A stretch of 20,000 bases of DNA from Lentisphaeria bacterium (GCA_041690595.1 JAWLHB010000047.1:47031-67030), one strand, 5' to 3'. Positions 2,295-20,000 are shown, numbered from the stretch's first letter. Notes: generated from the sequence alone by a model not told the origin. Made by a program: numbers and translations.

Positions 2295-3836
2295 CTACGA
2301 TGAGGCCGCACCGCCGATGCTCGCGCCATTGGCCGCGGGAGCGAGCCGCTGAAGCAGCCGTGAGGTGGCATCGTCGAAGACCGCATGCCATTCAGGGGCA
2401 AGCAAGCACTCCGTCACCTCGTAGCCACCGCGCTCGTAGGCATCGGGCTCAGAGCCGTAATGAAGGTAACCGTTGGAGTAGCAGGCAAGGAGCGTTTGGA
2501 GAAAAGGCGATTTTTTCTTCTGCGCCAGCCCGATCTCGACGGAAAGCTCCAGAGGACAGGCAAGAAGCAGGCAGTCGCTGATGCGAATCGCCTGGATCTC
2601 CGCCGCAACGGACTCCTCGCCAGAGTCATCATTGAGCGCCTGGTGCTTCTGGAGCGTAGCCATATCCTCCTGAATGACGACGAGCCGTTCCATGGTGCGA
2701 AGGTTAGCGAGGTACTTGTCCACCTGCTGGCGCTGCCAGGCGTCCATGGCGGCCCGATCTTCCCCATGATAGCGTTCGGTCTGCAGGTAGCGGTACGAAT
2801 AATCAGTAGGAAAATCGGCGTTGACGAGGTGCTGGAGGTAGAGAGGCAGAAAGGCCTTTAAGTTGAGGCAGGTGGAGCGAAGGGAGTCCAGCAGCGCTGC
2901 CTCTTCCTGGCGCAGGGCGGCGAGACGCTCGGGGATATCCGTCCGGCGTGGCAGCATGATCGTCTCGGAGACGAGAGCCAGATCGCCATCATGCGTCTGG
3001 ATGCGGCGCCACGCCGCCAGAGTACTTAGGCCAAGCGTGATTCCAAGCGGCTCGATGTCGCGGGGGCGGTTGAACTCCTTGAAGAAGATATCCACAACAT
3101 TGCCCGCGGCGCCCTGGAGGAAGATGGCCATGGCCTCCCCGCCCAGCGTCTCCTCGATCAGCCGCGAAGCAATGCCCGGGAGATTGGCGGTGATCGAGCC
3201 ATGCGTGTCGCCAAAAAGCAGGTGGCAGGCAAAGTTGTAGACCACCGCGAGCGGGCGGCCATCGACGCGGTCAACGCGCAGGATGCCGATCCCGGGATCG
3301 ATGGGCCCGACGGCCTCGACCTCATCATCCGGGGGACACGGATTGGCATGGCGAATCGTCCAGCACTGGCCATTTTTGAGCTTCAGGCCACGGTTGATGC
3401 TGATCCGGTCCTCGAAACCTTCGCCCGCGCCGATACTCACCTCCGTCAGGCCGAGCGTGGCACGCCGGATGGCATCGAAAACCCGCTCGAGCTGCTGGTT
3501 GTCGTCGCACAAGAGCCGCCCGGGCGGATGAGTGTGGGAGGCATTGACCAGAAGGTTGCCGCCGGGAATCCCCAGCTCCGTTTCGATTCGGGCGCGAAGG
3601 TTCGGCAGAAACGCCTCGCCTACATCGGGAAGAATGCCCGAACTGATGTGACGCGCGCCGATCGCGGTCGTATCCATGGCGACGATCGCCAGGCGCGTGA
3701 CGCCGTCATCGAGCACCAGCACCTTGGCTTGGAGCGGATCGCGCACGGGGGTGGACGGTCTCTCGTTGGTGATCTCGCAGCTGGCAACGCCAGCCCGCAA
3801 TCTCGGCGCGGAAAAAGTGTCTTTCGGGGGCATCAT
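2295..3836 (-). CDS. Neutral/alkaline ceramidase-like metal-dependent amidohydrolase (PVC-type); start uncertain (ATG 3836/3833 preferred over TTG 3878)
   Basis: Family motifs RAGVASCEIT, VRDPLQAKVLVLDDG, NLLVNASHTH, VVYNFACH, FLQGAAGNV and C-terminal YSNGYLHY...AYERGGYEV. The TTG start at 3878 would overlap the upstream gene's stop. Confidence 0.72.
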   Translation of the reverse strand: MMPPKDTFSAPRLRAGVASCEITNERPSTPVRDPLQAKVLVLDDGVTRLAIVAMDTTAIGARHISSGILPDVGEAFLPNLRARIETELGIPGGNLLVNASHTHPPGRLLCDDNQQLERVFDAIRRATLGLTEVSIGAGEGFEDRISINRGLKLKNGQCWTIRHANPCPPDDEVEAVGPIDPGIGILRVDRVDGRPLAVVYNFACHLLFGDTHGSITANLPGIASRLIEETLGGEAMAIFLQGAAGNVVDIFFKEFNRPRDIEPLGITLGLSTLAAWRRIQTHDGDLALVSETIMLPRRTDIPERLAALRQEEAALLDSLRSTCLNLKAFLPLYLQHLVNADFPTDYSYRYLQTERYHGEDRAAMDAWQRQQVDKYLANLRTMERLVVIQEDMATLQKHQALNDDSGEESVAAEIQAIRISDCLLLACPLELSVEIGLAQKKKSPFLQTLLACYSNGYLHYGSEPDAYERGGYEVTECLLAPEWHAVFDDATSRLLQRLAPAANGASIGGAASS

Positions 3837-3861
3837 AAGATCTCGTGCCTGCAACTCGTGA

Positions 3862-6111
3862 TTACCAGGTGATGACAAAGTCGATTACCGCCACTGCGAC
3901 GGCAGACTCCGTTTCATAACGTACATGATCGAACGGCTTGAAACCACTGCCGCTGACATAGGACCAGACCACATCCGTCTGCGCGACAGAAGCCGTCAAC
4001 ATCACATTGCCGGCGCCGGGACGAAGCTGAAGGCAAGGTTGCGTCCCGAATCGCGCGATGAGCTCATCTTCGAGGGCGACACCGATCTCCCGCTTGCCCT
4101 GAAAAAGCCAGCTCAGTTGCCGCGGTTGCCGAAGAACCACGTGGTCGCGGCAGATCAGCTGTTGCCTTCCACCGACAAGGAATTCGCGGGTATAGGCGAT
4201 AACGTCCAGCTCCTCGGGATACGCGGGCGCAAGGTTGAGGCGAATGATGCCCTCGCCCGTACCCTCATCCCACCGCACCAGCTCGATCTCTTCGCCGTGG
4301 TGGCGCTTGGAAGGAATCGACATGGGATAGCCGACGTCGCCGCGCTGTCCCTGCCCATCGATCAGCAGGCAGGAGCGCAAGCAGGAACGAAGGCGGTAGC
4401 CGGAGTCGGGTGTCAGCAGAAGCGGCTGGGCGCCCACAGCCACGATGAAATGGCCGGCGCCCGGGGCGATCTCCATCCGGTCACATGGCCCCCTGGCCCG
4501 GCGATAGGCGTTGTACCCGCACCAGGGGCCGCACTGCACGGAAAGCGTGACGCGGCCGTCCCGGTAGTGCGCCAGACCGCTGTCCTCGAAGAAGGCGAGA
4601 CGCGGCGGTTCGGGAAGCCCCGCAACCGGCTCAACCGTCGGGTCGTGCGAAAGCAGTCCCCAAAGTGGTCCGTGGAAATAGGCGATCTCTTCGACTCCGG
4701 CATAGAAGGCGGTCGGTGGCGTCTCCAGCAGCAGGTGGGCGATCCTGGCAGCGCGCCCATCCCCGTACTTGGTGGCCATACGGTTGAAGAAGGCGTTGCC
4801 GCCGATCATCAACTCGCGGTCGCCGCCAAAATTGGTCGTGACGACCATACGGTGCTCTTTCTCATGCAGAACGGCAATGACGTACTCCATAATCGGCCTG
4901 AAGGGCGCCCAATCGAAGAGGTCGTCTCCCCCGGCAGCCAGAAGCGCATCGCGAAAGTGCGTCAGTTCGTTCAGGTACAGGTAGAAATTGGAGTACGAAC
5001 TTGGCGGCAGGACGCCGTCTCGCGGCATGGCCTCCAGACTGCGGCGGACGCGCGGAATCACGTAGGCGATCCAGCGTTCCGCTTCGGGAAGAATTCCGTA
5101 CAGCGCGAGTGCAGCGGCACCAAAGCTGTGCATCGACCGCCAGCCGTGATCCTGCAGCACCGAACCGCCCCAGTAGTCGCGATTGATCAGGGCAAGGTTC
5201 ACGAACCGGTCCCCCTGCAGCGCCATCTTCGCCAGCATGCTCTTCGTGCGGGCGGGGCCGAGCTCGTCGCGGAGGGCATGAAGCGCCCAGGCCAGGCAGC
5301 GCATGGCGACGGCGGGCGCCATATCGCCATCATGGCTGTAGCCATCTTCTCGCGGGTTTCCCCAGTGCGGCAGCGCCACCGTCTCATCGATAACCTTCAG
5401 CGCCAGGTCGAGGACATCCACATGGCCGTCGAGGTGCCAGGCAGCGATCAGCAAGGGGATGTTTTCGGGGCCGTGCGACGGGCGGGCGAGAAGCCAGGCG
5501 AACGAGCGGCGAAGTGGTTCGGCGTAGAGCGCATGGGTGGTGGTCAAAACCTCGCGCAACCGCCTCCAGTCGGGAGTCGGATTGGCGGCAGCGAGGCCGG
5601 GTGGCAGGGGCTCCAGGCAATCTTCCGGATCCGCTTCCAGCCGCGCGGAGATCCAGCTTATGGCCATGGGCCGATAGGGTATCAACCGCAGCGTCGCTTC
5701 GCCCGAGAGAGGCAGGTGGAAGGCCATCCGCCCCCGGAAACGGCGGTGCGCGATGTCTTCCAGCGATACCCGCTGAAAGAACCAGAGGCCCAGACGCTGC
5801 CCGTTCACCTCGACCCAGTAACTCGGCACCAGCGGCTTGTTCCCGTCAAGCTCCGTAAAATCCCACGGTCCGCAGCGCTGCCCCTTGTTCCCGTAGCAGT
5901 CAAAGGTCAGATACAGCTCTTCCCAGTCGAACGCTGACGCATCGACAATCACCGAGAGCTGATAGAGCCCGGCCGGCGCCTCGAAGCTGAGCCGCAAGGC
6001 GCCATCGTCCAGCTGCTGGAAGGGGACAAGCCGGGGTTCCGCGAGAGTGCAGATGCATGGTGGAATCGTAACCATTGAAAGAGCCGGATCAGCGTTGAGC
6101 TTTGCGGGCAT
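3862..6111 (-). CDS. Heparinase II/III-like (polysaccharide-lyase-fold) protein with uncharacterised N-terminal domain
   Basis: Helical middle region (YWGGSVLQDHGW, FGAAALALY, DGVLPPSSY) is followed by a beta-rich C-terminus with FFEDSGLAHYR, HFIVAVGAQPLLLTPDSGY, LLIDGQGQ and LNLAPAYP, as in Hepar_II_III beta-sandwich domains. Confidence 0.62.
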   Translation of the reverse strand: MPAKLNADPALSMVTIPPCICTLAEPRLVPFQQLDDGALRLSFEAPAGLYQLSVIVDASAFDWEELYLTFDCYGNKGQRCGPWDFTELDGNKPLVPSYWVEVNGQRLGLWFFQRVSLEDIAHRRFRGRMAFHLPLSGEATLRLIPYRPMAISWISARLEADPEDCLEPLPPGLAAANPTPDWRRLREVLTTTHALYAEPLRRSFAWLLARPSHGPENIPLLIAAWHLDGHVDVLDLALKVIDETVALPHWGNPREDGYSHDGDMAPAVAMRCLAWALHALRDELGPARTKSMLAKMALQGDRFVNLALINRDYWGGSVLQDHGWRSMHSFGAAALALYGILPEAERWIAYVIPRVRRSLEAMPRDGVLPPSSYSNFYLYLNELTHFRDALLAAGGDDLFDWAPFRPIMEYVIAVLHEKEHRMVVTTNFGGDRELMIGGNAFFNRMATKYGDGRAARIAHLLLETPPTAFYAGVEEIAYFHGPLWGLLSHDPTVEPVAGLPEPPRLAFFEDSGLAHYRDGRVTLSVQCGPWCGYNAYRRARGPCDRMEIAPGAGHFIVAVGAQPLLLTPDSGYRLRSCLRSCLLIDGQGQRGDVGYPMSIPSKRHHGEEIELVRWDEGTGEGIIRLNLAPAYPEELDVIAYTREFLVGGRQQLICRDHVVLRQPRQLSWLFQGKREIGVALEDELIARFGTQPCLQLRPGAGNVMLTASVAQTDVVWSYVSGSGFKPFDHVRYETESAVAVAVIDFVITW

Positions 6112-7801: not shown

Positions 7802-8422
7802 ATGAGTACAAGCCCCCTCGTATTCGATCCTTATATAATCCAGAACGTCCCCGGAAAGACCTTCCTCGACGTTGGCTGCGGTTACGGAAAATGGGGCTTC
7901 CTGCTCAAGAAGTATGCCGATCCCACTCAGCCGCGCCATGTCACCGGTCTGGATCTCTTCGAACCCCACGTGAAAGCACTCCAGGCGGATGGCATTTACG
8001 ACGAGGTTCATGTGGGCGACGCCACCGCCCTGCCCTTCCCGGACAAGTCATTCGACACGGTCATCGCTTGCGAAGTTCTGGAACACTTGCCGCGGGAACA
8101 GGGAGAAGTACTCATCCGTGAACTCAGGCGCGTTGCCAGGCTCTGTTTCGTCGTCTCCACGCCAGGCTTCCCGTGCCTGCGTGGGGGAAGCGATACCCTT
8201 GATGGCTTCAACCCCCACGAAGCTCACCAGCATATCTATTCCTACAAAGACTTCAGCTCCCTGGGCTTCACCCAGATCATCGGAGTTGGATGCCTGCGAA
8301 TGCGACCATTCAAGCTGGCCGCGGCCTTTGCATCACTTGGCATCTGGTTCCCATGGCTCAGTCGCTATCGTCTTGGCTTTTGGTTTGCCGACGGAAAGAG
8401 GCGTGTCCTCGAACTGGAATAG
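7802..8422 (+). CDS. Class I SAM-dependent methyltransferase (Methyltransf_11/25-like)
   Basis: Motif I FLDVGCGYG, post-I VTGLD, motif II/III GDATALPFPDKSFDTVIACEVLEHL. Has its own promoter and RBS. Confidence 0.9.
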   Translation: MSTSPLVFDPYIIQNVPGKTFLDVGCGYGKWGFLLKKYADPTQPRHVTGLDLFEPHVKALQADGIYDEVHVGDATALPFPDKSFDTVIACEVLEHLPREQGEVLIRELRRVARLCFVVSTPGFPCLRGGSDTLDGFNPHEAHQHIYSYKDFSSLGFTQIIGVGCLRMRPFKLAAAFASLGIWFPWLSRYRLGFWFADGKRRVLELE

Positions 8423-8447
8423 CCCGCCCTAACCGCACCCTGCCCCA

Positions 8448-8463
8448 ACGCAACGGGTTGCGT
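8448..8463. terminator. Short hairpin between convergent genes (possible weak terminator)
   Basis: ACGCAA-cggg-TTGCGT is a perfect 6-bp stem between the convergent stops at 8422 and 8494. There is no U-tract. Confidence 0.25.
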
Positions 8464-8493
8464 CCACTGCGTCCACTCCTCTTGCCGCCACGC

Positions 8494-10929
8494 TCAGCAG
8501 TGGGCAGCGCGGAGTGGATCGATAGTGTGCTCGTAGTCGACGACATGGAGGTCACCAACTGGATGAGAGTCGATGATCCGGCCTCCGAGATCGAGGCGGA
8601 CCGGGTCGCGGAAGGCGAGCTGTCCGGGGGTGCAGGGCGCGCCCGTCAAGAGATAGGCGTCGCGGGAGTCGCTGAGCGGGGTGAGTTCGCTGGTGGTCCA
8701 GGCGAGGCGGTTGCCGCCAAGATCAGCGTCCAGCAGGAGGACGCGAGCTTCGTGGGGCTGCAGGCAGATGTCGAAGGCATGCCCATCCGCCAAGCGAATG
8801 GTCGAGGGACCGCTGTCACCTCCGACATCGATGAGAGTGAGGAAGCTGACGGGGCCGCGGCGCAGGAGCGCATGGCGGAAGACGCCGTCAACCTGGCAGG
8901 CGGGTTGGAGCCCAAGGCATTGGACCAGAAGGTGATGCCAGAGACGAAGCGAGCCGTGACTCGTGTATTGCATGTTGAAGCCGGCGAGGAGGACGCGCGG
9001 ACTGAGCATGGCGGCGAGGGCGGAGTCACGGTAGGTGACAAGTGCTTCCGCGCCATTGGCGAACTCGTGCCCCCAGAGCCAATCGGGCAGACCGACATCG
9101 CCGACCGGAGTCTGCACAGAGCGGCTGCCGTAATCGAGGACGCGACCGCCGGCAGGGGCAATCTGCTGGATGAGGTGAACCCCAAGACGCTCCACCAGGC
9201 GGGTATCGGGGCGGCCATCGAGGGTACGGGCGGGAATGGTGGGAAAGAAGATGCAGTTGCCGTTCGCCTCGAGGTGTTCGAGGATCCAGGTAATGGCTTC
9301 CGCTTCCATCGCCCCCGTGTTGGGGACGATGAGGGTCCCCGTGCCGGCTGGCTGGTTGGGATGGCGAAGATCGCGGGCGTTCCAGCCGAAGTTGAGGCGC
9401 GAGCAGAGAAGCGCGGACTCGCGCGTGCGGTGCCAGATGCCCGCTTCCGCGGGGACCGCCTGGCGCGTGACATTCTCGACGCCATCGAGCCATTCGTGGC
9501 TGCCACCGCCGGTCTGCATGCTCAGGGCGGGCTCGGCATCGAAGGCAACCCCGCCGGGCCTGCCGGCCCCCAGAAAGTCTTGGTAGCGCTGTCCCGCTGA
9601 AAAGGCAATCGTGCACTCGGCCGCGCAGGGAGCGGCGGCCAGTTCCCGACGCCAGGCATGGGCAAAGCGGAAGAAACGTTCGACGCTCTCTCCGCCCGAG
9701 GTCAGCCGGCCACTGAGGTCGAGGCAACTGGGCTCGTAGTACTCGGGACCATCGATCGTGTCCTGCAAGGGCGAGATGGCCGCGGCATAGGGATAGACGA
9801 CGCCACCGGCCAGGCCGTGCCCCAGTCCGCCGCGAAGGAGCGGCGACCAGTTGAGGTTGGACCGGGCAAGACGGGGAATGTACCAGTTGACGTTCAGCTC
9901 GATGGATAGCGGAACCGCCCCCCACCCGCTTGCCTTGACCAGCTCCAGCCCCCAGGCGGTATTCTGCAGCCCCTCCAGATCCATGATCCGATCGGAATAG
10001 GTATGACAGGCCGTGGTCCCGACGATGCCGCGCTCCTGCATGACGGCCCCAAAGCCGGAATGGTCCCCATGGCCATAGAAGCCAGCCACCGGTTCGTTGA
10101 AGCAAATCGGCACCTCGATGCCATCCTCCTGAGCCCAGGCAACCATGGTGGCGCCCCAGTCCGCGAAGAACCAGCGCTTGAAGTCGAGCCAGTCGTGGCA
10201 GAGGAGGCGTTCACCGGTGGTGGTGGGGAATCGCCGCAGGGGTTGAACCGCCGCGATCTCCGGAAGCGCGGTGCCGTAGCGCTGGTTGAGCGCGTCGATA
10301 TCCCCATACCGCTGCTGCAGCCACGCGGGCCAGCGCTCGTGAAGCATCGCCGGATCATAAAGCGAATTGAGCAGGCCATAGGTCCACCCGGCGGAGAGTT
10401 CGTTGTCGGGCTGAAAGAGGATGACCGAGCCGTCGCGGGTACTCTGGAAACGCGCGATCAGCGGGACAACCTGGCGGAACCACCCCCGCACATAGTCGCG
10501 GAAAAGGGGCTCCCCTTCCGCCGGCGCAACGCGACCAGTGACCGGCTGCCCATCGGCGCGGCGACTGATCGTTTCGGGATGATCCCGGAAGAGCCATTCC
10601 GGGAAGCCCCCATAGCGCAGCTCGCTGTTGACGAAAGGACCCGGGCGGGCGATGACGTTCAGCCCCAGCTCGGCTGCCAGCTCGAGAAAGCCCTGCAAAT
10701 CGCGCTCGGGAAGCGTTTCGCCATGGAGGTCGACGCGTCCTTCCTCGGGCTCATGGAAGTACCATGGCATGTAGGAAGCCACGGTATTGACGCCGGCGTC
10801 GCGGGCAGCCGTCATCCGATCGCGCCAGGTATCGCGGGGGAGACGGTAGTAGTGAATTTCCGCGCCGCAGAGGAAGAGGGGCTCGTTGTCGAGGCGAATG
10901 TGTCCATCGGCGATCGTGACAGCTGCCAT
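8494..10929 (-). CDS. GH35-family beta-galactosidase-like glycoside hydrolase with GH42-like C-terminal domains
   Basis: GH35 motifs GAEIHYYRLP, AGVNTVASYMPWYFHEPEEG and IARPGPFVNSELRYGGFPEWL. Acid/base in FQPDNE and probable nucleophile in PLSIEL. Downstream class-I-GATase-like trimerisation segment TLIVPNTGAM...EHLEANGNCIF. No signal peptide. Confidence 0.88.
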   Translation of the reverse strand: MAAVTIADGHIRLDNEPLFLCGAEIHYYRLPRDTWRDRMTAARDAGVNTVASYMPWYFHEPEEGRVDLHGETLPERDLQGFLELAAELGLNVIARPGPFVNSELRYGGFPEWLFRDHPETISRRADGQPVTGRVAPAEGEPLFRDYVRGWFRQVVPLIARFQSTRDGSVILFQPDNELSAGWTYGLLNSLYDPAMLHERWPAWLQQRYGDIDALNQRYGTALPEIAAVQPLRRFPTTTGERLLCHDWLDFKRWFFADWGATMVAWAQEDGIEVPICFNEPVAGFYGHGDHSGFGAVMQERGIVGTTACHTYSDRIMDLEGLQNTAWGLELVKASGWGAVPLSIELNVNWYIPRLARSNLNWSPLLRGGLGHGLAGGVVYPYAAAISPLQDTIDGPEYYEPSCLDLSGRLTSGGESVERFFRFAHAWRRELAAAPCAAECTIAFSAGQRYQDFLGAGRPGGVAFDAEPALSMQTGGGSHEWLDGVENVTRQAVPAEAGIWHRTRESALLCSRLNFGWNARDLRHPNQPAGTGTLIVPNTGAMEAEAITWILEHLEANGNCIFFPTIPARTLDGRPDTRLVERLGVHLIQQIAPAGGRVLDYGSRSVQTPVGDVGLPDWLWGHEFANGAEALVTYRDSALAAMLSPRVLLAGFNMQYTSHGSLRLWHHLLVQCLGLQPACQVDGVFRHALLRRGPVSFLTLIDVGGDSGPSTIRLADGHAFDICLQPHEARVLLLDADLGGNRLAWTTSELTPLSDSRDAYLLTGAPCTPGQLAFRDPVRLDLGGRIIDSHPVGDLHVVDYEHTIDPLRAAHC

Positions 10930-10944: not shown

Positions 10945-11643
10945 TTATAGCTTGTTGTTCTCGACCAGCCGCACCAGATCGCGCAGGCTGGAAATATGGA
11001 AATCGGCGCGTTCCAGCTCTTCCCGGGGCTGGTAGTCGGCGTACTTGCCCTGCAGAATACGGATACTGACCATCCCCACCCGGTTGGCGCCAAGCACGTC
11101 CCGCCGCGGGTCGTTGCCGACAAATGCCGCCCGCTCCGGCTCCACGCCCAGTTGCGCGCACGCCTTCAGGAAGATGGCCGGATCCGGCTTCTCGACGTTC
11201 ACTTCGCTGGAGATGATCACCGAGTGGAAAAAATGCTGCAGACCCAGGCGGATGAGCTTCTCCCATTGCTTCACCGCGACCCCATTGGTGATGATGCCCA
11301 GGGAGTAACCGCGGTCCCGCAGCTTGAGCAGCGAGGGCATCGTTTCCTCGAACGGCTTGAGATAGGCAAGCTTGACGCTGTGGTAGGCGACGACACCAGC
11401 GGCTACAAGGTGAGGGTTCGAAGCCAGCCCCAGCTCCTTGAGCATCTCGTCGTAATGCCGACCGAAGTTGGACCCGAACTGGCGGATGACCTTGCTCAGC
11501 GCCGCCTCCACGCGCTCCCGCTCCACCGAGAGGCCCGCATCGATCATCGCCTCCACCGCATGCCGCCGCGCATAGGTCGACTGCCGCGTGCTGTTGTAGA
11601 GCGTGTCGTCGATGTCGAAGAAAAGACTGGTCACCGGCGCCAT
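10945..11643 (-). CDS. HAD-superfamily subfamily IA phosphatase, TIGR02253 (MJ1437/PH1655-like) type; likely start ATG 11643 (232 aa)
   Basis: Motif I FFDIDDTLY, motif II GIITNG, VKQWEKLIRLGL, motif III EKPDPAIF, motif IV FVGNDPRRDVLGANRVGM. The cap sequence ARRHAVEAMIDAGL...FGSNFGRHYD...AAGVVAYH is typical of this family. The ORF-track extension to 12090 is antisense to the next gene. Confidence 0.88.
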   Translation of the reverse strand: MAPVTSLFFDIDDTLYNSTRQSTYARRHAVEAMIDAGLSVERERVEAALSKVIRQFGSNFGRHYDEMLKELGLASNPHLVAAGVVAYHSVKLAYLKPFEETMPSLLKLRDRGYSLGIITNGVAVKQWEKLIRLGLQHFFHSVIISSEVNVEKPDPAIFLKACAQLGVEPERAAFVGNDPRRDVLGANRVGMVSIRILQGKYADYQPREELERADFHISSLRDLVRLVENNKL

Positions 11644-11683
11644 GATATTCCTGCCGCGGCCGCGGATGTTCACGTGAAAGGGG

Positions 11684-11711
11684 TTGACGAAGCTGGCCCT
11701 CAATATACCTT
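11684..11711 (+). promoter_or_regulatory. Possible sigma70 promoter for the epimerase-queC-radical SAM unit
   Basis: TTGACG (11684-11689), 16-bp spacer, TACCTT (11706-11711) in the divergent intergenic region. AAAGGA RBS precedes ATG 11774. Confidence 0.35.
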
Positions 11712-11773
11712 TGTAACAGTCACACACACTAGCAAGCCGCGGAAATCGGCGAAACAAACCCAAAGGATCTCGA

Positions 11774-12628
11774 ATGGCCTTCAAGTATACCGGCTTCGCG
11801 GACGAAGCCAGCAAGACGTTGACGAAGCAGATTGAAGCAACAAAGGAAGCAGGCTGGTCCTCCATCGAACTGCGCCTGGTCGACGGCAAGAATGTCTGCG
11901 ATCTGAATGACGAGGAATGGGCCAGGGTTTGGCAGAAGCTGCAAGACGCGGGCATCACCGTCGCCGGCTTCGGTGGCCAGATCGCCAATTGGGCGCGCCC
12001 CATTACCAACGATTTCCAGACCGACCTCGCCGAACTCAAGCGGGCCATCCCCCACATGAAGCAGGCAGGCACCAACCTCATCCGCATCATGTCCTACCCG
12101 AACCCCACGGACAATCCCTGGAACCGTGACGAATGGCGGGACGAGGTCGTGCGCCGCCTGCGCCTCTTGACCCCCATCGCCGAAGAAAACGGCATCATCC
12201 TCGGCCACGAGAACTGCAGCGGCTACGGCGGCCTCGGCCCCAAGGAGTATCTGGAACTGGTCGAGATGGTCGACAGCCCTTCCCTCAAGCTCATCTTCGA
12301 TACCGGCAACAACAGCCAGCATGATCAGGACATCGAAGCTACCTGGCGCTACTACCAGGCATGCAGGGACCAGATCGTGCACGTGCACATCAAGTCCTAC
12401 AAGCCCGGCCCAGATGGCAAAATGGCCACCTGTTTCCCGGACGAGGATCCAGTCCAGAAGCGCATCCTGGCCGACCTCAAGGCAACTGGCTACGACGGTT
12501 GGCTCTCCATCGAACCCCACCTCGCCGCAGCCATCCATGCCGGCAAGGATGTCGCCGACGAAGACAAGGCCAAGTCCGTCTACATCGAGTACACGAAACG
12601 ACTGGAGAGGCTGATTGCCACACTCTGA
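11774..12628 (+). CDS. Sugar phosphate isomerase/epimerase (AP_endonuc_2 / xylose-isomerase-like TIM barrel)
   Basis: TGFADEA, IELR and IRIMSY, plus metal-ligand motifs LGHENC, LIFDTGN, IVHVHIKS and GYDGWLSIEPHL. Confidence 0.88.
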   Translation: MAFKYTGFADEASKTLTKQIEATKEAGWSSIELRLVDGKNVCDLNDEEWARVWQKLQDAGITVAGFGGQIANWARPITNDFQTDLAELKRAIPHMKQAGTNLIRIMSYPNPTDNPWNRDEWRDEVVRRLRLLTPIAEENGIILGHENCSGYGGLGPKEYLELVEMVDSPSLKLIFDTGNNSQHDQDIEATWRYYQACRDQIVHVHIKSYKPGPDGKMATCFPDEDPVQKRILADLKATGYDGWLSIEPHLAAAIHAGKDVADEDKAKSVYIEYTKRLERLIATL

Positions 12629-13334
12629 GCACCCTGACTCCGGCGGAAGCGGCAAAGCGACGGTGCTGGTCAGCGGCGGGATGGACTCCACCACCCTGCT
12701 CCATCATGTGGCCCGGCACCGTGGCTTTGCCGAGATCTTTGCCCTCTCCTTCGAGTATGGGCAAAAGCATGCGCGGGAACTGCGGATGGCCGAGTGGCAG
12801 TGCGCCCAGGTGCCCGGGGTCGTCGCCTGGAAGTCGATCGACATTGGCTTTTACGGCCGCCTTGTCGAGCATGCGACCGCCCTCACGGGGAATGAAGTGG
12901 CGGTACCCGATCTGGCGGCAATCCCCACCGAAGAGCTGGATCAGCCGATCACCTATGTACCCAATCGCAACATGATCATGCTCTCCATTGCCGCCGGCTA
13001 TGCCGAAAGCACCGGATGCAGCCACCTCTTCTATGGCGCGCAGGCGCAGGACGAGTACGGCTACTGGGATTGCAGCGAGGAGTTCGTGCGCCGGCTCAAC
13101 CAGCTGCTGGCCCTCAACCGGCGCTGCCCCGTGCATGTTGAAGCACCCTTTGCGGGCATGCGCAAGGCAGAGGAGCTGCGGCTGGGGCTGGAACTGGGCA
13201 TCGACTACGCGCATACCTGGACCTGCTATCGCGGCGGCGACCTTGCCTGCGGGAGCTGTCCAAGCTGCGAAGAGCGGCTCAAGGCTTTTGCGGAAGTCGG
13301 GATCGAAGACCCCCTACCCTATCGCCAACGATGA
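12615..13334 (+). CDS. queC: 7-cyano-7-deazaguanine (preQ0) synthase
   Basis: PP-loop VLVSGGMDSTT, FEYGQKH, TYVPNRNMIMLSIAAGYAE, GYWDC and Zn site TWTCY...CGSCPSC. TTG start has a GGAGAGG RBS and overlaps the previous gene by 14 bp. Confidence 0.93.
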   Translation: MPHSEHPDSGGSGKATVLVSGGMDSTTLLHHVARHRGFAEIFALSFEYGQKHARELRMAEWQCAQVPGVVAWKSIDIGFYGRLVEHATALTGNEVAVPDLAAIPTEELDQPITYVPNRNMIMLSIAAGYAESTGCSHLFYGAQAQDEYGYWDCSEEFVRRLNQLLALNRRCPVHVEAPFAGMRKAEELRLGLELGIDYAHTWTCYRGGDLACGSCPSCEERLKAFAEVGIEDPLPYRQR

Positions 13335-14992
13335 GAGTTGTCTGGCTGGCGGTCAACGCCTCCTACGCCCACAGCTCCCTCGCCGCGCCCCTCCTTCATG
13401 CCGCGGCACAAGGGCGGGTCCAGAGCGAGTGGCACCTGGTCCAGGTGACCATGGGCGACGATCCGGCACTGGCAGCCGCACAGGTGGCGAAACTCGCCCC
13501 CGATATCTGCGCCGCGACCCTCTACCTCTTCACCCGCGAGGCGGCGCTGGCCATGCTCGCGCGGGTGAAAGCTCTCTGCCCCGACTGCTGCATCATTGTC
13601 GGCGGCCCGGAGCTGGCCGGCGAGTGCGAGCTACTGCTGCGAAGCAACCCCTGGATCGACATCGGCGTGCGCGGTGAAGGCGAGCGGATCTTTCCAGACT
13701 GGCTGGATCGCTGGCAAAGCCCGGAGCGTTGGGCCGACCTGCCCGGCCTCTGCTGGATAGACGACAATGGCGCCTGGCATGACAATGGCGTCGCGATTCC
13801 CGTCGATCCACTGGAGCAGTTGCCTTCGCCGCTGACCAGTCCTTTTCACGACAGCGGCCGGGCCTTCGTCCAGATGGAGACTTCGCGCGGCTGCATTCAT
13901 CACTGTTCCTTCTGCGCGAACGGTGGCGGCGGAGCCATGCGCCTGCTCCCCTTGAGCCGAATTCAAACGGAGTTGGAGGAGCTGGCGCGACGAGGCGTCC
14001 GCGAGGTCCGCCTGCTCGATCGCACCTTCAACGCGCATCCCTCGCGTTGCGTCGACCTGCTCCGGCTCTTCCGCCGCTTTCCCAGCATGCGCTTTCACCT
14101 GGAGTTTCACCCCGCGCTCTTGCCACCAGCCGTGCGCGACGAGCTGGCGGCCATGCCCTCGGGCCAGCTTCATTTCGACGTGGGGCTGCAATCGACCTCA
14201 CCGGAAGTGCTGACTGCCTGCAGTCGCGGCGGATCCCCGGAGCGTGCCTGGGAAGGGCTGCGCTGGCTCGTGGCGCAGCGCAATCTCGCCATCCATGTGG
14301 ACCTCATCGCCGGCCTCCCCGAGCTCACGCTCCCTTACCTTGAGGCGGATGTGCGGCGTCTTGTCGAGCTGGGCCCGGAAGAGATTCAACTGGAGAGCCT
14401 GAAGCTGCTGCCCGGCACACGCTTGCGTACCGAGGCAAAGCAGTATGGGCTGATCTATTCCCCCCTGCCCCCGTATGAAGTGCTGTCTACGCGCCGCATG
14501 TCGATGGCCGATCTGCGGGCCGCGGCCCTTCTCTCCACCATGATCGACCGCTTCTACAATACGCCCGTCATCCAGCCCGTGCTGCGCGCGGCGCAGCAGG
14601 AAATGGAGGAGCTGTTACCCTCTCTGCGACACTGGCTTACGCAGCAACAAGGGCTGGAATTGCCATGCAGCCTTGAAAAGCGCATGCTGCTGCTGTACAC
14701 ATACTTGGAAGCTCACCGCCTTCCGGCACGCGAGATGCTATGTAGGCAGTGGATGTGGCATGGCCTCCCTCCCGGCCGATGTCCGGTCGAGGTGCGTACA
14801 TGGAAGGGGGCATTACCAACGGGTGGTGAGTGGCTGATCGGTTCGCAAGCCGATGCGGCATCGGGGAGCGCACGGGTGCGCAGGCTGCGCCTGCATGACG
14901 TAGACCTGTTTTACATTTTCGACCTCGGGCGGGAGCCCCAGAAATCGGTTGCTCTCTATCATATGTCGCGTACCGAGGTGGCACAACCATGA
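13331..14992 (+). CDS. B12-binding domain radical SAM protein (DUF4080-type)
   Basis: N-terminal cobalamin-binding-like NASYAHSSLA...IIVGGPE...RGEGE, ETSRGCIHHCSFC (CxxxCxxC), LDRTFN, GLQST, HVDLIAGLP, LKLLPGT and PPYEVLST. ATGA overlap with the queC stop. Confidence 0.9.
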   Translation: MRVVWLAVNASYAHSSLAAPLLHAAAQGRVQSEWHLVQVTMGDDPALAAAQVAKLAPDICAATLYLFTREAALAMLARVKALCPDCCIIVGGPELAGECELLLRSNPWIDIGVRGEGERIFPDWLDRWQSPERWADLPGLCWIDDNGAWHDNGVAIPVDPLEQLPSPLTSPFHDSGRAFVQMETSRGCIHHCSFCANGGGGAMRLLPLSRIQTELEELARRGVREVRLLDRTFNAHPSRCVDLLRLFRRFPSMRFHLEFHPALLPPAVRDELAAMPSGQLHFDVGLQSTSPEVLTACSRGGSPERAWEGLRWLVAQRNLAIHVDLIAGLPELTLPYLEADVRRLVELGPEEIQLESLKLLPGTRLRTEAKQYGLIYSPLPPYEVLSTRRMSMADLRAAALLSTMIDRFYNTPVIQPVLRAAQQEMEELLPSLRHWLTQQQGLELPCSLEKRMLLLYTYLEAHRLPAREMLCRQWMWHGLPPGRCPVEVRTWKGALPTGGEWLIGSQADAASGSARVRRLRLHDVDLFYIFDLGREPQKSVALYHMSRTEVAQP

Positions 14993-15008
14993 GCCGGCGG
15001 CTACATTA

Positions 15009-15022
15009 TGAAAACGTTTTGA
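15009..15022. promoter_or_regulatory. Palindromic putative operator upstream of the ubiquitin-like cassette
   Basis: TGAAAACGTTTTGA has a perfect 10-bp core AAAACGTTTT (15011-15020). It lies in an AT-rich 46-bp intergenic gap, between a -10-like TACATT (15002-15007) and the RBS AAGGGTGG. Confidence 0.35.
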
Positions 15023-15038
15023 ATAAGGGTGGTCATGG

Positions 15039-15317
15039 ATGAGCGATAGCGGTCATGTCACGGTAGAAATATGGGATGCCGGGGGAGTCGCGATGACCAC
15101 CGCCACGTTGCCGACAGATGTCAAGGTCGGCGAGCTGATCTCCGTGCTGGTGGCACGACTCAATATGCCCAAGACCGGAGCCGATGGTCAGATTATCAGC
15201 TATAAACTCAATCACCAGAACAAGACACGACAGCTGCTCTCTGGCGAGACGCTGGCACAGGCCGGCGTTCCGGATGGCAGCATCCTCCGCCTGCTGAGAG
15301 AAATCATGGCCGGATGA
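15039..15317 (+). CDS. Ubiquitin-like beta-grasp protein (EsaB/YukD family) ending in Ala-Gly
   Basis: 92 aa with beta-beta-alpha pattern VTVEIWD...TATLPTDVKVGELISVLVARLNM. The C-terminal half SYKL...RQLLSGETLAQAGVPDGSILRLLREIMAG parallels ubiquitin's [29 protein letters not shown]. RBS present. Confidence 0.85.
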   Translation: MSDSGHVTVEIWDAGGVAMTTATLPTDVKVGELISVLVARLNMPKTGADGQIISYKLNHQNKTRQLLSGETLAQAGVPDGSILRLLREIMAG

Positions 15318-15379
15318 AGCACGAGCTCTGCAATAAGTAGCTGTACGACGAGACGACGTTTACAGAAAAGGTTTACCAA

Positions 15380-16441
15380 GTGCCCGAAGAATTGATCATC
15401 GATTCGAATGATCTCGCATCCCCAGAGATCAAAGAGAGCGTAGCACAGGATCGATCGCTGGAAGATATGGCGCGGGCTTCCCGCTCCATTATCCGTACCC
15501 CACTCCTCCGCAGCCCATACTTCTATTACACCTTTGCCGGCCTTGTCGGCTCCGTCCTCGCATGGTCCGCCGTCTACCTCCTGCTTCTGCCCCTGCCGCT
15601 GGATTTGCCGCCCCAACTGGAGAGGGCACTCAGCTATATCTGCAGCGCCGGGTTAATTGGCATGACCATGGGCATGTCCCATGGGCTGATCTATCGCAAT
15701 CTGCGTACAGCGGTGCATTGCGGCGCGGTCGGGCTCCTGGTGGCCGCCCTGCCGGCCTTCTTCATGGGGGGGATCGGCGAACTCTTTGCCACTCTGGTTG
15801 TCGACCTGCCAAATTACCTGCTGCAGCGAGGCAAATGGACAACGGATCGCGGCATCTTTCTCTTTCTGATCATGGCGTCCGATGGCTTCACATGGGCGCT
15901 GATCGGTTTGCCCATGCTCATGGGAACAGGCATAGCGCTCCGTTCGAAGCCGTTGCTCTATTCAGCCGCTGCGTCGGGCATGCTTGGCGGCTTCATCGGC
16001 GGGGCAGCACGAGCACCGATCTTACGCTTTCTGCCGGAACTGATAGGCGGCAGCGAGGTGATCGCCGGCCTGATCTGGTTCAGCCTCATCGGCATCCTGG
16101 TAGGACTCCTCTATGCGATGATGGAGCATGGAGTCCGGGAAGCTTGGTTCATCCTGGCGAAGGGGCCGTTGCGCGGCAAGCGATTCGTCTTCTTCAAGAC
16201 TCCCATTTCCGTCGGGTCAAGCTCCCGGTGCGACCTCTACCTCGCCGGCGATGCCGCCATTGCACCCGTTCACGCCAACCTCAGCCAGGAAGGAATCTTC
16301 TGGTTGCTGCGAGACGAGGGTGCCCCCAACGGCACCTTTGTCAACGGCCATCGCATTCAACAATGCCTCCTCAACCACAATGATGTGGTGACCATGGGCG
16401 AGACGGTACTCAAGTTCAAACTGAACAAGCGGACGGGCTAG
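15380..16441 (+). CDS. Polytopic (about 6 TM) Gly-rich membrane protein with C-terminal FHA domain
   Basis: Several Gly-rich hydrophobic helices across aa ~48-248, then an FHA fold: AWFILAKGPLRGKRF...ISVGSSSRCDLYL...IAPVHA...LRDEGAPNGTFVNG...LNHNDVVTMGETVLKF. GTG start with AAAGG upstream. Confidence 0.85.
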   Translation: MPEELIIDSNDLASPEIKESVAQDRSLEDMARASRSIIRTPLLRSPYFYYTFAGLVGSVLAWSAVYLLLLPLPLDLPPQLERALSYICSAGLIGMTMGMSHGLIYRNLRTAVHCGAVGLLVAALPAFFMGGIGELFATLVVDLPNYLLQRGKWTTDRGIFLFLIMASDGFTWALIGLPMLMGTGIALRSKPLLYSAAASGMLGGFIGGAARAPILRFLPELIGGSEVIAGLIWFSLIGILVGLLYAMMEHGVREAWFILAKGPLRGKRFVFFKTPISVGSSSRCDLYLAGDAAIAPVHANLSQEGIFWLLRDEGAPNGTFVNGHRIQQCLLNHNDVVTMGETVLKFKLNKRTG

Positions 16442-16444
16442 CCC

Positions 16445-17044
16445 ATGAGCGATGGAGTCGATGTCTATGCGGCAGGGACGCAGTTGGCCGGGGTCATGTG
16501 CTGGGTATGCCAGACACGCATCATGGCCGGCGACGAGATCGTCTTCTGTCCCCATGACCAGCTGCCGACCCACGCCGAATGCTGGGAGAACAACGAGGGC
16601 TGCCCGGTCTACGGCTGTGAAGCAGCCCCCGACCACGGCCACTTGGCCGTTCAGGCACTCGGTTCCCAGACCGGTGCGGCCAACTACCAATGCCCCTCCT
16701 GCCGACGAATGGTCAAGCCCAACTTCCTCCAATGCAACTACTGCGGCGTCGACTTCTCATTGCAGAATGTCGTAAGCGGCCTCGAAAACGAAGATTACAA
16801 ATACCGCGGTCAGCACGACCACCGCCAGCAGCGCGGCCTCTGGCTCCTCCTCCTCTGCACGATTACCGGCATCCTCGCGCCCATCGCCCTCATACTCTGT
16901 GCTACCCTCATGATGAAAGGCTCCATGGGGCGGCTGCGCCTCAGTCACCTCTTTCGCGATTCACGCATGCTCTTCTATGGCACCTTCACCCTCAGCGCCG
17001 TGACCACCATTCTCCTTCTGGTCCTCATCGCTTTCGACCTGTAA
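16445..17044 (+). CDS. Prokaryotic RING finger (Prok-RING_1-like) + zinc ribbon + two C-terminal TM helices; candidate membrane E3 ligase
   Basis: C19-x2-C22-x12-C35-x2-D38-x4-H43-x2-C46-W-x5-C53-x4-C58, then C83-x2-C86-x10-C97-x2-C100. Hydrophobic segments GLWLLLLCTITGILAPIALILCATLMM and LFYGTFTLSAVTTILLLVLIAF. Starts 3 bp after the FHA gene. Confidence 0.82.
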   Translation: MSDGVDVYAAGTQLAGVMCWVCQTRIMAGDEIVFCPHDQLPTHAECWENNEGCPVYGCEAAPDHGHLAVQALGSQTGAANYQCPSCRRMVKPNFLQCNYCGVDFSLQNVVSGLENEDYKYRGQHDHRQQRGLWLLLLCTITGILAPIALILCATLMMKGSMGRLRLSHLFRDSRMLFYGTFTLSAVTTILLLVLIAFDL

Positions 17045-17059
17045 CCGGCTTACCCCAGC

Positions 17060-17962
17060 TTGCACATGAATGTCCGCTACAGACGTTTGACCGCCGATTA
17101 CGAACGCATCCAGCAGATGCTTCAGAGTACCCCCCATATCCGCATTGCCGAAAAGATCGGCAATCCGCCCGAGCGCTACGAACTGGAGTATGGCATCAAG
17201 AGCCTGGTCAAGGATCCCAGGAGCGGCAAGATCCGCGAGGAGAAGCTCTTTCGCGTCGAAATGACGCTCGGCGATGCGTATCCGCGCATGGCGCCTCAAT
17301 GCCGCATGGTCAACCCCGTTTTCCATCCCAATATCGTCACCGATGCCATCTGCGTGACCGACTACTGGTCGGCCGGCTCCAGCCTCGCCAGGCTGCTCGT
17401 GCGCATCGGAGAGCTGCTCGCCTACCAGTCGTACAGCCTCAAATTCCCGCTCAATCCCGAGGCGGCCGTATGGGTCGAGAAGAACCAGGGGCGCGTCCCC
17501 ACCGACACCACGGACTTCGTGGCCATCCTTCACTCTGGCGAAGGGGTGCGCCGCAATGACGAGACCGAGATACGGGATACCGATACCTGCGTCGAGTGTG
17601 GCAAACCGGCGGGGGAAGTGCCGGTGCACATCACCGAGAGTAACCATCTCGTCTGCGAAGACTGTCTGGTCCAGTGCACGCACTGCCACGCGATCATGTC
17701 CAACCGGTCACCGCGCGAGACCTGCGAAACCTGCGGCGAGTGGACCTGCTACAAATGCATCCATCGCTGCCTGAACTGCGGGATCCTGGTCTGCACCAAT
17801 CACATGATCAAATGCGACATCTGCGAACTCGGTCACTGCGCCTCCTGCGTCGTGCAATGCGCTGACTGCGGTGCCACCGTCTGCGTCGAGCATGCCGCCC
17901 CCGCCGAACGGGATGGCGAAACGATTCACCGATGCGAGACCTGCCTCCTCCAGGAAAGCTGA
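17060..17962 (+). CDS. Ubiquitin-conjugating enzyme E2 (UBC fold) fused to a C-terminal Cys/His-rich zinc-binding array; start TTG 17060 or ATG 17066
   Basis: UBC motifs RYRRLTADY (helix 1), FRVEMTLGDAYPRMAPQCRM, VFHPNIVTDAIC (catalytic Cys codon 17351-17353), YWSAG, LLVRIGELLAYQ and PLNPEAA. C-terminus carries 12 CxxC/CxxH dyads. Confidence 0.9.
   Translation: MHMNVRYRRLTADYERIQQMLQSTPHIRIAEKIGNPPERYELEYGIKSLVKDPRSGKIREEKLFRVEMTLGDAYPRMAPQCRMVNPVFHPNIVTDAICVTDYWSAGSSLARLLVRIGELLAYQSYSLKFPLNPEAAVWVEKNQGRVPTDTTDFVAILHSGEGVRRNDETEIRDTDTCVECGKPAGEVPVHITESNHLVCEDCLVQCTHCHAIMSNRSPRETCETCGEWTCYKCIHRCLNCGILVCTNHMIKCDICELGHCASCVVQCADCGATVCVEHAAPAERDGETIHRCETCLLQES
17723..17902 (+). repeat. Four tandem 15-aa (45-bp period) C-x2-C-x4-C-x2-[CH]-x3 protein repeats in the E2 tail
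   Basis: CETCGEWTCYKCIHR / CLNCGILVCTNHMIK / CDICELGHCASCVVQ / CADCGATVCVEHAAP, with first Cys codons at 17723, 17768, 17813 and 17858. Confidence 0.85.
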
Positions 17963-17974
17963 CCCGCCCTCCCC

Positions 17975-19039
17975 TCAGGGCTGGCCAAGCAACGCGCAGG
18001 TTGCCGCGCTGATCGTGCCGCTGTCGCGCAGCTTGCATGCCTGCGTCGCCAGATCGCACTCTGGACGCCTGCCCACTTCCCGCCGCAGCGCCTCCAGATG
18101 CGGCCCCGCCGCAATGAAGTCGCGCCAGCCATCATCCGCCTCCAGGACGCCAGCCACCGGCACCGGTTGATTCTCCATTCCCCGCACCAGTCGCTGGGCC
18201 ACAACCCCCGTGATGGCCGCGCCGATCAGGAAAGGCTCGAAGCCTTGGTGGAGCATCCGCGCATAAACAGAGGCGATGTCGCCGGCGTGGTAGGTGGTGA
18301 GGATACGGTGTCCGGTGAGGGCCGCATCCAGCACCACCCGCACCACCCCCGCATCGCGCATCTCACCCACAACCAGCGTCTTCACATCCTGCCGCAACGC
18401 TGCCCGCAGTGCCGTTTCATAGTTCCACTCCGGCTGAGTTCTGGTCACCGCCGTCTGCGAAATCTCCTCGATGACGCTCTCGATCGGATCCTCCAACGTG
18501 ATGATCGAAGAGGGATCCTGATCGCACTTCAGCAGCTCGCGGATGAGCGCATAGATGGTCGTGGTCTTGCCGCACCCAGTCTGCCCGGTCAGGACGATCA
18601 AACCCGATGGCCGCATGAGCATGCGGCGCAGCGACTCGACGGCAGCCGCCGGATAGCCCAGGTCGTCCAGTTGGAACGGCATCGCCCGACGCGCCATCAT
18701 CCGCATGGTGATCCGCTCGCCATAAAGGGTCGGCATCGTCGCCACCCGAATCTCCTCGCCGTTGTTCCGGCGCATCACCCCATCCTGAGCAACCTGCGTC
18801 CGGTAAGTCAGCAGCCCCGCCAGCACCTTGATATGAGTCAGGCACTGCTCCCCGAGATTACGAGGCACCTCCTCCATATCGTGCTGAAGTCCCCCAATGC
18901 GCGCCCGAATGCGAACGCTTTCCCGGGATGGAAGCCAATAGAGGTCACTCGCCTGCCGTGCCAGCGCCTCCGCCACGATCCGCTCCACGACAGCCGGCGC
19001 CCCATGTTCTTCCACATTATGATCGACTCGCCGCGCCAT
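17975..19039 (-). CDS. GspE/PulE/PilB-family secretion ATPase, short form
   Basis: CLTHIKVLAGL...QDG, IRVATMPTLYGERITMR, Walker A GQTGCGKTTT, Asp box TLEDPIE, ALRAALRQD, Walker B LVVGEMRD, His box ALTGHRILTTYHA, GVVAQRLVR. Confidence 0.88.
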   Translation of the reverse strand: MARRVDHNVEEHGAPAVVERIVAEALARQASDLYWLPSRESVRIRARIGGLQHDMEEVPRNLGEQCLTHIKVLAGLLTYRTQVAQDGVMRRNNGEEIRVATMPTLYGERITMRMMARRAMPFQLDDLGYPAAAVESLRRMLMRPSGLIVLTGQTGCGKTTTIYALIRELLKCDQDPSSIITLEDPIESVIEEISQTAVTRTQPEWNYETALRAALRQDVKTLVVGEMRDAGVVRVVLDAALTGHRILTTYHAGDIASVYARMLHQGFEPFLIGAAITGVVAQRLVRGMENQPVPVAGVLEADDGWRDFIAAGPHLEALRREVGRRPECDLATQACKLRDSGTISAATCALLGQP

Positions 19040-19293
19040 GCAGGATCTGCCCCAAGAGGTTGACGATCGTCACCAGAAAGTCTTCCACGAAGAGTAGTCC
19101 CTCCCCCTCCCAAGTGCAATCCAATTCCAACACCTTTCCCACGCCCACAATCCACCCCAACCCGTCTGACCACGTCCGACCCGCCCGCCCCCGTCAGACT
19201 CGCTGCATTTGCTGTCGCTTGAAGTGGTGGAGTCAATAGGCGATATTCTTCAAGCCTGCACTCGGCATGGAAGTGTCTGGCAAAACTTAGCCG

Positions 19294-19698
19294 ATGATTA
19301 ATGCTGATTCTGGACTGAGTATGAATAAGCGCCTAATAGAATGGACATTTCTCGTCCACTGGAGTCTCTGTTTTCTTGGTTTCTTTGGTATTTACATGTA
19401 CGGCTGCATCAACATGGATGGACGGCTGTCACTTTTCATTATCTTCGATGCCGTTTATTTAATGTTCATGAGCCTTTTGCTTAGCTTTTCTGCATTTACT
19501 GTTGTAAGAAAAATGATGAATGGCCGAGCTATTTCCCTCTACGCAAGTGTCGCCGCGCTATATACTGCCGGAGCTTTCACGACTCTCTACGTATTTCTCT
19601 TTAAGTACCAGGAAATTGCTATTGGAACACAAATCGCTATCGCTCTTGCTTTGTTTTATACTGGAAGCATTCTCCATCGAAGAGCTTCAGTCAAGTAA
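19294..19698 (+). CDS. Hypothetical four-TM membrane protein in a low-GC segment (start 19294 or 19321)
   Basis: 134-aa ORF with four hydrophobic segments. AT-rich codon usage is unlike the rest of the window. No recognisable family. Confidence 0.55.
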   Translation: MINADSGLSMNKRLIEWTFLVHWSLCFLGFFGIYMYGCINMDGRLSLFIIFDAVYLMFMSLLLSFSAFTVVRKMMNGRAISLYASVAALYTAGAFTTLYVFLFKYQEIAIGTQIAIALALFYTGSILHRRASVK

Positions 19699-20000
19699 AG
19701 CCAGAGACTGTTCAGGCTCTTATCTGATACGTCCGACCTGGCGTGTTAAAAATTTGCCGCTTGTGGGCATTTCTGCGGAAATAAGTTCACCTCACTTTTG
19801 GATCTCCGTGATCCTCCGAATACTTTTCGGCGCTTGGCCAGGAGAGACGATCCGAGATGCTCGTCCACCCATTGCTGCGTGTCCGTACAGCGGACGTTCT
19901 CAGTAAGCGTCAAAAATACCCCATGGTGAATATTCGCTTGCTCGTGCGCACAGTATCTCCTGTGACTTGAACCCCCTACAGGAGATCATGAGGATGAGCA

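Follow-up and report, generated by a model that had tools for sequence, protein, structure and literature searches.

Can a bacterial protein with the motifs of a eukaryotic ubiquitin-conjugating enzyme (E2) be a working E2, and with which partners would it act? The question is raised by a locus of a Lentisphaeria bacterium (GCA_041690595.1 JAWLHB010000047.1:47031-67030), analysed here as one stretch of 20,000 nucleotides that we call the window. An earlier note on this stretch had described at 17060-17520 a bacterial E2 with near-canonical eukaryotic motifs, and had taken it to be catalytically active, lysine-directed and relevant to the origin of the ubiquitin system. Our analysis confirmed that 17066-17962 (+) encodes a genuine UBC-fold E2 of the bacterial UQ_con family, with the canonical fold, the HPN motif and Cys96 at the catalytic position. 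The reading that we favour, with a probability of about 0.78, is that of an active-type E2 in a reduced cluster with a ubiquitin-like protein (Ubl), a membrane protein bearing an FHA-fold domain and a membrane RING protein, which would form a conjugation cascade together with an activating enzyme (E1) supplied in trans.

The E2 protein and its bacterial family

The open reading frame (ORF) of the E2 comprises 298 residues, in which a UBC domain is followed by a cysteine-rich tail:

17066..17530, + strand: UBC (E2) catalytic domain, residues 1-155 (Pfam UQ_con, AlphaFold2, Foldseek and PDB profile search)
17588..17959, + strand: Cys-rich multi-zinc tail, residues 175-298 (about 125 residues; 22 Cys, 9 His)

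Homologues begin M-x-V-R-L-R-R-L, for which reason the ATG at 17066 was considered a likelier start than the TTG at 17060. With this start the catalytic residues are therefore Asn89 and Cys96 (formerly numbered N91 and C98), the HPN motif (residues 87-89) lying at 17324-17332 and the Cys96 codon at 17351-17353. The extent given in the earlier note was thus amended at both ends, its limit at 17520 enclosing the UBC domain only, while the ORF continues to 17962. The motifs that it listed were all found, in the order described, in the translation of 17060-17962 (+), namely YRRLTADY, AYPRMAPQ, VFHPNIVTDAIC, DYWSAG and FPLNPEAA. Six residues separate the Asn from the Cys, and the reported difference of six versus seven was found to hold against yeast Ubc13, because the HMMER alignment contains one gap between HPN and Cys. 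The same alignment revealed a feature that had been missed, a Cys-to-Trp loop three residues shorter than in Ubc13.

The Pfam family UQ_con (PF00179) matched residues 58-143 with 41.1 bits (cut-off 27; E 1.7e-10) and was the only credible family for this protein, with no match to the UEV, RWD or Prok-E2 Pfam families at E <= 1. The claim of a UBC-fold E2 with HPN and catalytic Cys, as opposed to an inactive UEV or RWD fold, was borne out by these results and by the presence and invariance of Cys96. When solved structures were searched with phmmer, yeast Ubc13 was matched at E 1.1e-6 with HPN, Cys, Trp and P-L-N in register; a profile of 39 family members run against the PDB matched UBE2C at E 3.7e-11, and all 60 of the rows listed were eukaryotic E2s. 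H87, P88, N89 and C96 aligned with the HPN and Cys of both Ubc13 and UBE2C. Since the Pfam, phmmer and family-profile scores were all significant, the motif match is not a chance one. HPN and Cys96 were invariant in alignments of 26, 50 and 39 sequences, and Trp101 was invariant in the first two of these, with conservation of 90% or more in the third.

The AlphaFold2 model of the whole protein had a mean predicted local distance difference test (pLDDT) value of 92.1 and displayed a helix at 3-19, strands from 25 to 81, and helices at 107-118, 131-139 and 151-159. Its best Foldseek matches were Ubc13, UbcH5, Rad6 and UBE2K (probability 1.00; E ~3e-7 for the first three), with TMt of 0.61-0.69 and root-mean-square deviation (rmsd) of 5-6 A for the top matches, and the top 50 rows were all eukaryotic E2s. 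UQ_con had a single match in the window's genome and none in 14 control genomes. Catalytic activity and lysine direction are a reasonable expectation from these sequence features.

Within the tail, 21 Cys/His columns were invariant in 31 sequences, and AlphaFold2 modelled this region with a pLDDT of 96.3; it probably binds about six zinc ions. Pfam gave no family for it, the only overlapping match being Siva (E 0.73), and Foldseek returned no whole-domain match and none at E <= 0.001 (best E 0.05). In the last 52 residues there is a likeness to RIM/FYVE-type binuclear zinc fingers (Z 7.7, rmsd 2.4 A) that stands below the Z 8 caution line. Protein Atlas gave a best score of 0.76 and LIM for 11-21% of the members, a lead that was rejected because it falls below the tool's own threshold. 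Shorter members of the family bear a zinc ribbon (PF13717) in place of the tail, so the C-terminal module of these E2s is variable; it is taken to be an adaptor.

The best solved relatives are canonical eukaryotic E2s, but the protein is no rare outlier, being one of thousands of bacterial proteins in a family already annotated as E2. Relatives in genomes and metagenome contigs were found with alignment queries, single-protein queries giving nothing. Eighty relatives were recognised among 666 candidates, several of them named "ubiquitin-conjugating enzyme E2" at source (Brocadiia, Planctomycetota, CSSED10-310). An exhaustive search of cluster representatives at 50% identity gave 1191 proteins at E <= 0.001, of which 660 reached E <= 1e-10, and a domain-profile search restricted to the 84-272 residue range gave 4645 proteins among 5193 candidates. 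One of those profile matches came from a named, cultured planctomycete, and for the best 120 of the 4645 every source name given was bacterial or generic. At least 546 of 599 pattern matches in species genomes encode E2 relatives. At closer range the distribution was sparse, with an E2 in only one (G012) of 60 relatives of the same order or class.

In the tree, the E2s of the window and of two metagenome contigs (L091 and L092), which carry the closest E2s obtained together with their DNA, formed a clade with support 100/100. This clade fell, with support of 97/94, within a larger one that also holds sequences of Planctomycetota, Verrucomicrobiota, Lentisphaerota, Chloroflexota, Hydrogenedentes and Sumerlaeota. 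Between the E2 genes of the window and L091, the nonsynonymous rate (dN 0.32) was far below the synonymous rate (dS 1.29; dN/dS ~0.25), which argues for purifying selection, with dS near saturation in this pair and saturated in the other pairs. A distant relative (P0080, 25% identity) has seven residues from HPN to Cys and a longer Cys-Trp loop, like eukaryotic E2s, and may belong to a different bacterial E2 lineage.

The reduced cluster, its probable E1 and the operon of relatives

Three genes directly upstream of the E2 complete the cluster, and a candidate E1 lies on another contig:

15039..15317, + strand: YukD-like Ubl, 92 residues (Pfam YukD PF08817, E 5.1e-11, 43.6 bits)
15380..16441, + strand: polytopic membrane protein with a C-terminal FHA-fold domain, 353 residues (Pfam FHA and Yop-YscD_cpl; hydropathy)
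16445..17044, + strand: membrane-anchored RING protein, 199 residues, with Prok-RING_1, a zinc ribbon and two C-terminal hydrophobic helices (Pfam PF14446)
G000:C11:84592-85557 (locus L086:7590-8558), - strand: ThiF-type E1 orthologue, 322 residues (operon-E1 matches and co-occurrence)

All four ORFs of the cluster are intact, the E2 being the last, and the gaps between the Ubl, FHA, RING and E2 genes are 62, 3 and 21 bp. UQ_con, Prok-RING_1 and YukD had one match each in the window's genome (99 contigs, estimated 97% complete), all within the cluster. In L092, whose E2 is 54% identical, the FHA, RING and E2 genes are ordered as in the window, and in L091 (62% identical) the end of a RING gene directly precedes the E2. 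Because the gene order matches in these two contigs, the reduced arrangement is no assembly accident. No Ubl was found on the 5.7 kb of L092, and in none of the 80 related loci did a Ubl stand directly before the FHA gene.

What the cluster was reduced from became clear from the relatives. Gene context was counted in the 80 loci kept, whose ORFs were scored with the window's proteins and with the proteins of two annotated loci (L010 and L023). In these two, Pfam gave the order zinc-ribbon protein, YukD-like Ubl, ThiF E1, JAB, membrane FHA protein, one or two Prok-RING_1 proteins, Prok-RING_1 with Trypsin_2, UQ_con E2 and DUF2752. Of the 80 loci, 48 had at least 7 kb upstream of the E2, and there the Ubl was present in 37, the E1 and JAB in 43 each, the membrane FHA and RING proteins in 45 each, and the RING-trypsin in 39; of the 69 loci that extend far enough downstream of the E2, 46 had DUF2752 there. 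The complete set was also carried by G012, the sole relative of the same order with an E2. The window cluster is thus a reduced derivative of a widespread operon of Ubl, E1, JAB, membrane FHA protein, RING protein(s), RING-trypsin, E2 and DUF2752. RING-trypsin and DUF2752 were not found in the window's genome.

The Ubl of the window ends in EIMAG immediately before the stop codon. The pattern E-I-[TI]-A-G was found near the C-terminus of all 39 Ubl relatives, 32 of them with a short extension and seven ending at the Gly. The operon class is marked by a Ubl whose C-terminal Gly is conserved, encoded beside an E2 and a Prok-RING_1 protein, and the window shows this combination. The FHA protein has at least four hydrophobic segments in a hydropathy scan, and its residues 261-347 matched Pfam FHA (1.9e-12) and Yop-YscD_cpl (2e-14). 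All 52 sequences aligned have G-S in place of G-R in this domain and lack the Ser of S-x-x-H, the His being invariant; this Arg and this Ser we take to be the canonical phosphate-contacting residues of FHA domains. A reading of phospho-Thr by the domain was dropped because both are absent. In L092, a gene at 4025-5374 (-), convergent to the E2, encodes a receiver-like N-terminal part and a Ser/Thr-kinase-like part, as judged by eye from the translation; it is an odd gene to find beside an FHA domain without phosphate-binding residues.

The RING protein passed Prok-RING_1 (PF14446) with 38 bits against a cut-off of 29.1, carries hydrophobic segments at 134-152 and 181-199, and keeps the pattern C-x2-C ... 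C-P-x-C ... H-x2-C ... C ... C except for the fourth Cys. A modelled complex of the UBC domain (residues 1-160) with the RING part (1-112) scored 0.62, the best of three controls reaching 0.01; among benchmark cases this score was attained by 116 of 157 solved complexes and by 2 of 215 mismatched pairs. The runs agreed in at least 49% of contacts, with partner pLDDT of at least 64. The interface on the E2 comprises residues 3-14, 73-74 and 100-106, which correspond to helix 1 and loops L1/L2, the elements through which eukaryotic E2s bind RINGs. At the level of the model, the RING would therefore dock on the canonical E2 surface; since E2-RING complexes have already been solved, the result indicates likeness and is no proof of binding.

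The E1s of the L010 and L023 operons matched the gene on contig C11 at 41-43% identity, versus 28-31% for a MoeB-like gene on C36. In four of four genomes with full operons the best match of the C11 protein was the operon E1 (41-44% identity). Among the 60 relatives of the same order or class its sole strong match (1.2e-55) was in G012, at the operon E1, and in the other nine with a match the values ranged from 5e-23 to 1e-20. Because of this identity to operon E1s, the best matches in four of four genomes and the co-occurrence with the E2, the C11 gene is very probably the E1 of the system, moved away from the cluster. It retains the C-Y-x-C and R-S-C motifs and lies between fucose-isomerase-like and PLD-type genes, its ATG overlapping the stop codon of the former. 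Further ThiF matches were found on C13 and C7. For Prok-JAB (PF14464, cut-off 25 bits) the single match, with 16.4 bits, stayed below threshold; it lies at C36:41444-41668 (+), within an open frame of 409 residues some 15 kb away from the MoeB-like gene.

The cluster is flanked upstream by a B12/radical-SAM gene and downstream by a convergent gene for a T2SSE ATPase. Its neighbours are housekeeping-type genes and form no defence island; PADLOC (library of 2023) gave no family for the E2, Ubl, FHA or RING proteins at E <= 0.01, and no NCBIfam model matched the E2, Ubl or RING proteins. Seven genes are packed at 11774-17962 (+), overlapping or separated by no more than 62 bp, the first three encoding a xylose-isomerase-like TIM barrel, QueC and the B12/radical-SAM protein with DUF4080, followed by those of the Ubl system, which may be co-transcribed with these unrelated upstream genes. 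A scan of 11500-18300 gave no promoter-like and five terminator-like sites (3.9 expected) and did not resolve the bounds of the operon. Elsewhere in the window, GC falls to 0.49 at 19001-20000, at the end of contig C47, and Pfam gave no match for the ORFs at 19294-19698 (134 residues, hydrophobic), 2295-3878 (-) (527 residues) and 8290-9600 (+) (436 residues). The last of these overlaps a GH35-like gene on the opposite strand and is probably no gene.

A proposed cascade and the competing explanations

On the folds, motifs, family membership, gene context, E1-E2 co-occurrence and modelled E2-RING interface documented above, a cascade can be proposed in which each chemical step, the targets and the biological role are inferred. 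A ThiF-type E1, most likely the C11 orthologue, would adenylate the C-terminal Gly of the Ubl and load the Ubl onto Cys96 of the E2 through a thioester bond. By docking on helix 1 and the L1/L2 loops, the membrane RING would stimulate the E2 to pass the Ubl on to target amino groups at the inner membrane face, while Asn89 would stabilise the oxyanion. Docking or the selection of substrates would fall to the FHA-fold protein and the zinc tail.

Several observations weigh against this cascade, and most of them favour the alternative that survives best, which we regard as distinctly unlikely: that the locus is a decaying or repurposed remnant whose E2 no longer conjugates and persists as a docking or scaffold part alongside the RING and FHA proteins of the membrane. 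Of the operon genes, four or five are absent next to the E2. The candidate E1 is trimmed at conserved motifs, lacking both the N-terminal R-F-x-R..L-I-x-W-W motif kept by at least 90% of 25 operon E1s and an insert of ~37 residues with C-x2-C...C-P-x-C. The first of these segments corresponds to R-Y-S-R-Q in the MoeB-like protein of the same genome; in MoeB/ThiF enzymes this N-terminal Arg serves as the Arg finger that contacts ATP. JAB was not found in the 97%-complete genome, where two tblastn queries gave nothing and PF01398 had no matches, although in an incomplete assembly this is no proof of absence. The clade of the window, L091 and L092 sits on a long stem (0.64) and has lost zinc ligands of its own: its E2s lack three tail Cys conserved at 90% or more in the rest of the family, T-E-S-N and M-S-N-R-S stretches replacing the Cys-bearing ones, and the fourth zinc ligand of the RING (residue 38) is Asp in the window and L092, whereas the remaining 18 aligned sequences have Cys there. 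In addition, the FHA domain makes a phospho-Thr input doubtful, as it lacks the canonical phosphate-contacting residues, and a literature search found no measured activity for any member of the operon class.

Four intact ORFs and a dN/dS of ~0.25 relative to L091 speak against a remnant, however. HPN, Cys96, Trp101 and 22 Cys/His of the tail (19 Cys, 3 His) are invariant in five clade members that are 54-62% identical to the window's protein. The Ubl also keeps its free C-terminal Ala-Gly, and the E1 orthologue is retained only in genomes with the E2.

A conjugating enzyme need not be directed towards lysine. The Asp of N-D-P-L helps activate the acceptor lysine, and the residue paired with this Asp of Ubc13 is Phe in the window and Phe or Tyr in the four closest homologues, the family consensus being Ser, as in UBE2C. 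The Phe counts against our reading as well, and because of it the lysine direction proposed earlier is worded with caution. It could point to an active E2 that passes the Ubl to Ser, Thr or Cys, to an N-terminus or to a membrane lipid head group, in the manner of Atg3 with Atg8. Such chemistry would be in keeping with two partner proteins embedded in the membrane, a RIM/FYVE-like zinc finger at the end of the tail and a Cys-Trp loop three residues shorter than that of Ubc13. We nevertheless consider this very unlikely, since HPN, which is typical of amine-directed E2s, is invariant, the FYVE likeness lies under its caution line, and no basic lipid-binding motif was seen by eye in the tail.

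Recent import of the E2 from a eukaryote or an Asgard archaeon would account for its canonical look and for best solved matches that are all eukaryotic, but is extremely improbable given an identity of only 17-24% to those enzymes, close relatives that are thousands of bacterial proteins from many phyla in a common bacterial operon context, and a GC content of the cluster (0.57-0.61) that is unremarkable for the window.

Known systems and significance

The bacterial UQ_con operon class was predicted from genomes in 2011 and is widespread, and the window is an example of this known kind. The accessible text of a review (PMC4197634) describes uncharacterized ubiquitylation operons in Actinobacteria, Planctomycetes and Acidobacteria, credits them to Burroughs, Iyer and Aravind (2011), and calls them sporadically dispersed and frequently absent from close relatives; the occurrence in one of 60 relatives matches this. 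Operons of this class share with the window the Pfam families of the YukD Ubl, the UQ_con E2, Prok-RING_1 and the FHA membrane protein. RING-containing operons of such a type are likewise termed uncharacterized in the accessible part of Chambers et al. The bearing on the origin of the ubiquitin system that the earlier note had seen in this locus was therefore overstated, the matter having been published as early as 2011 and being discussed in the review, with the operons attributed to Burroughs et al. The E2 of the window groups with those of the complete bacterial operons. It differs from them in its setting, with only four genes together, a trimmed E1 elsewhere, JAB, RING-trypsin and DUF2752 not found in its genome, and a Ubl that needs no trimming.

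With eukaryotic E2s (Ubc13/UBE2N, UBE2C, UBE2D, Rad6) the protein shares the UBC fold, HPN, catalytic Cys, the Trp of loop L2 and P-L-N, as well as, in the modelled complex, the placement of the RING on helix 1 and loops L1/L2. It differs in its low identity to the Foldseek matches (17-24%), in its multi-zinc tail and in its modifier, a YukD-like Ubl ending in Ala-Gly in place of ubiquitin; compared with Ubc13 in particular, it is shorter by one residue from HPN to Cys and by three from Cys to Trp, and has Phe for Asp before P-L. The Caldiarchaeum subterraneum operon (Nunoura 2011; Hennell James 2017), as described in the literature that cites these papers, is likewise a compact prokaryotic cluster of Ubl, E2 and RING E3. 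There, by contrast, the E1 and JAB/Rpn11 lie inside the cluster and the modifier is ubiquitin proper according to the review, whereas the partners in the window are membrane proteins. The anti-phage systems with E2-like proteins, namely BilB (Bil), Cap2 (type II CBASS), Bub and further Prok-E2 families, likewise follow a scheme of Ubl conjugation by an E1 and an E2, but the E2 of the window had no PADLOC (E <= 0.01), Prok-E2 Pfam (E <= 1) or NCBIfam match.

We suggest, tentatively and as a rather unlikely extension of the proposed cascade, that the window clade represents a naturally minimised, one-way Ubl-tagging module, with a ready-made Ubl, neither JAB nor RING-trypsin, an E1 in trans that has shed its Arg-finger segment and zinc insert and so might need a partner subunit, and the zinc tail as receptor. 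The tail, with its approximately six sites, may be a built-in receptor for substrates or partners.

The window brings no new kind of system; what is particular to it is the reduced cluster, the E1 in trans, the JAB that was not found and the uncharacterised zinc tail. The family itself is larger than suggested by the accessible part of a 2024 review, where bacterial instances are reported only singly, as it counts 1191 representatives at 50% identity and at least 546 relatives encoded in species genomes. Operons of YukD-Ubl, E1, E2, JAB and Prok-RING are the bacterial systems most like the eukaryotic E1-E2-RING cascade, and the compact variant in the window, with soluble and well-modelled parts (a 92-residue Ubl without processing, a 155-residue UBC domain and the RING), could be a convenient test case. 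If the minimised module is real, its four to five small genes would be the simplest complete bacterial E1-E2-RING system for reconstitution, and the tail of the E2 would be a new zinc-finger module.

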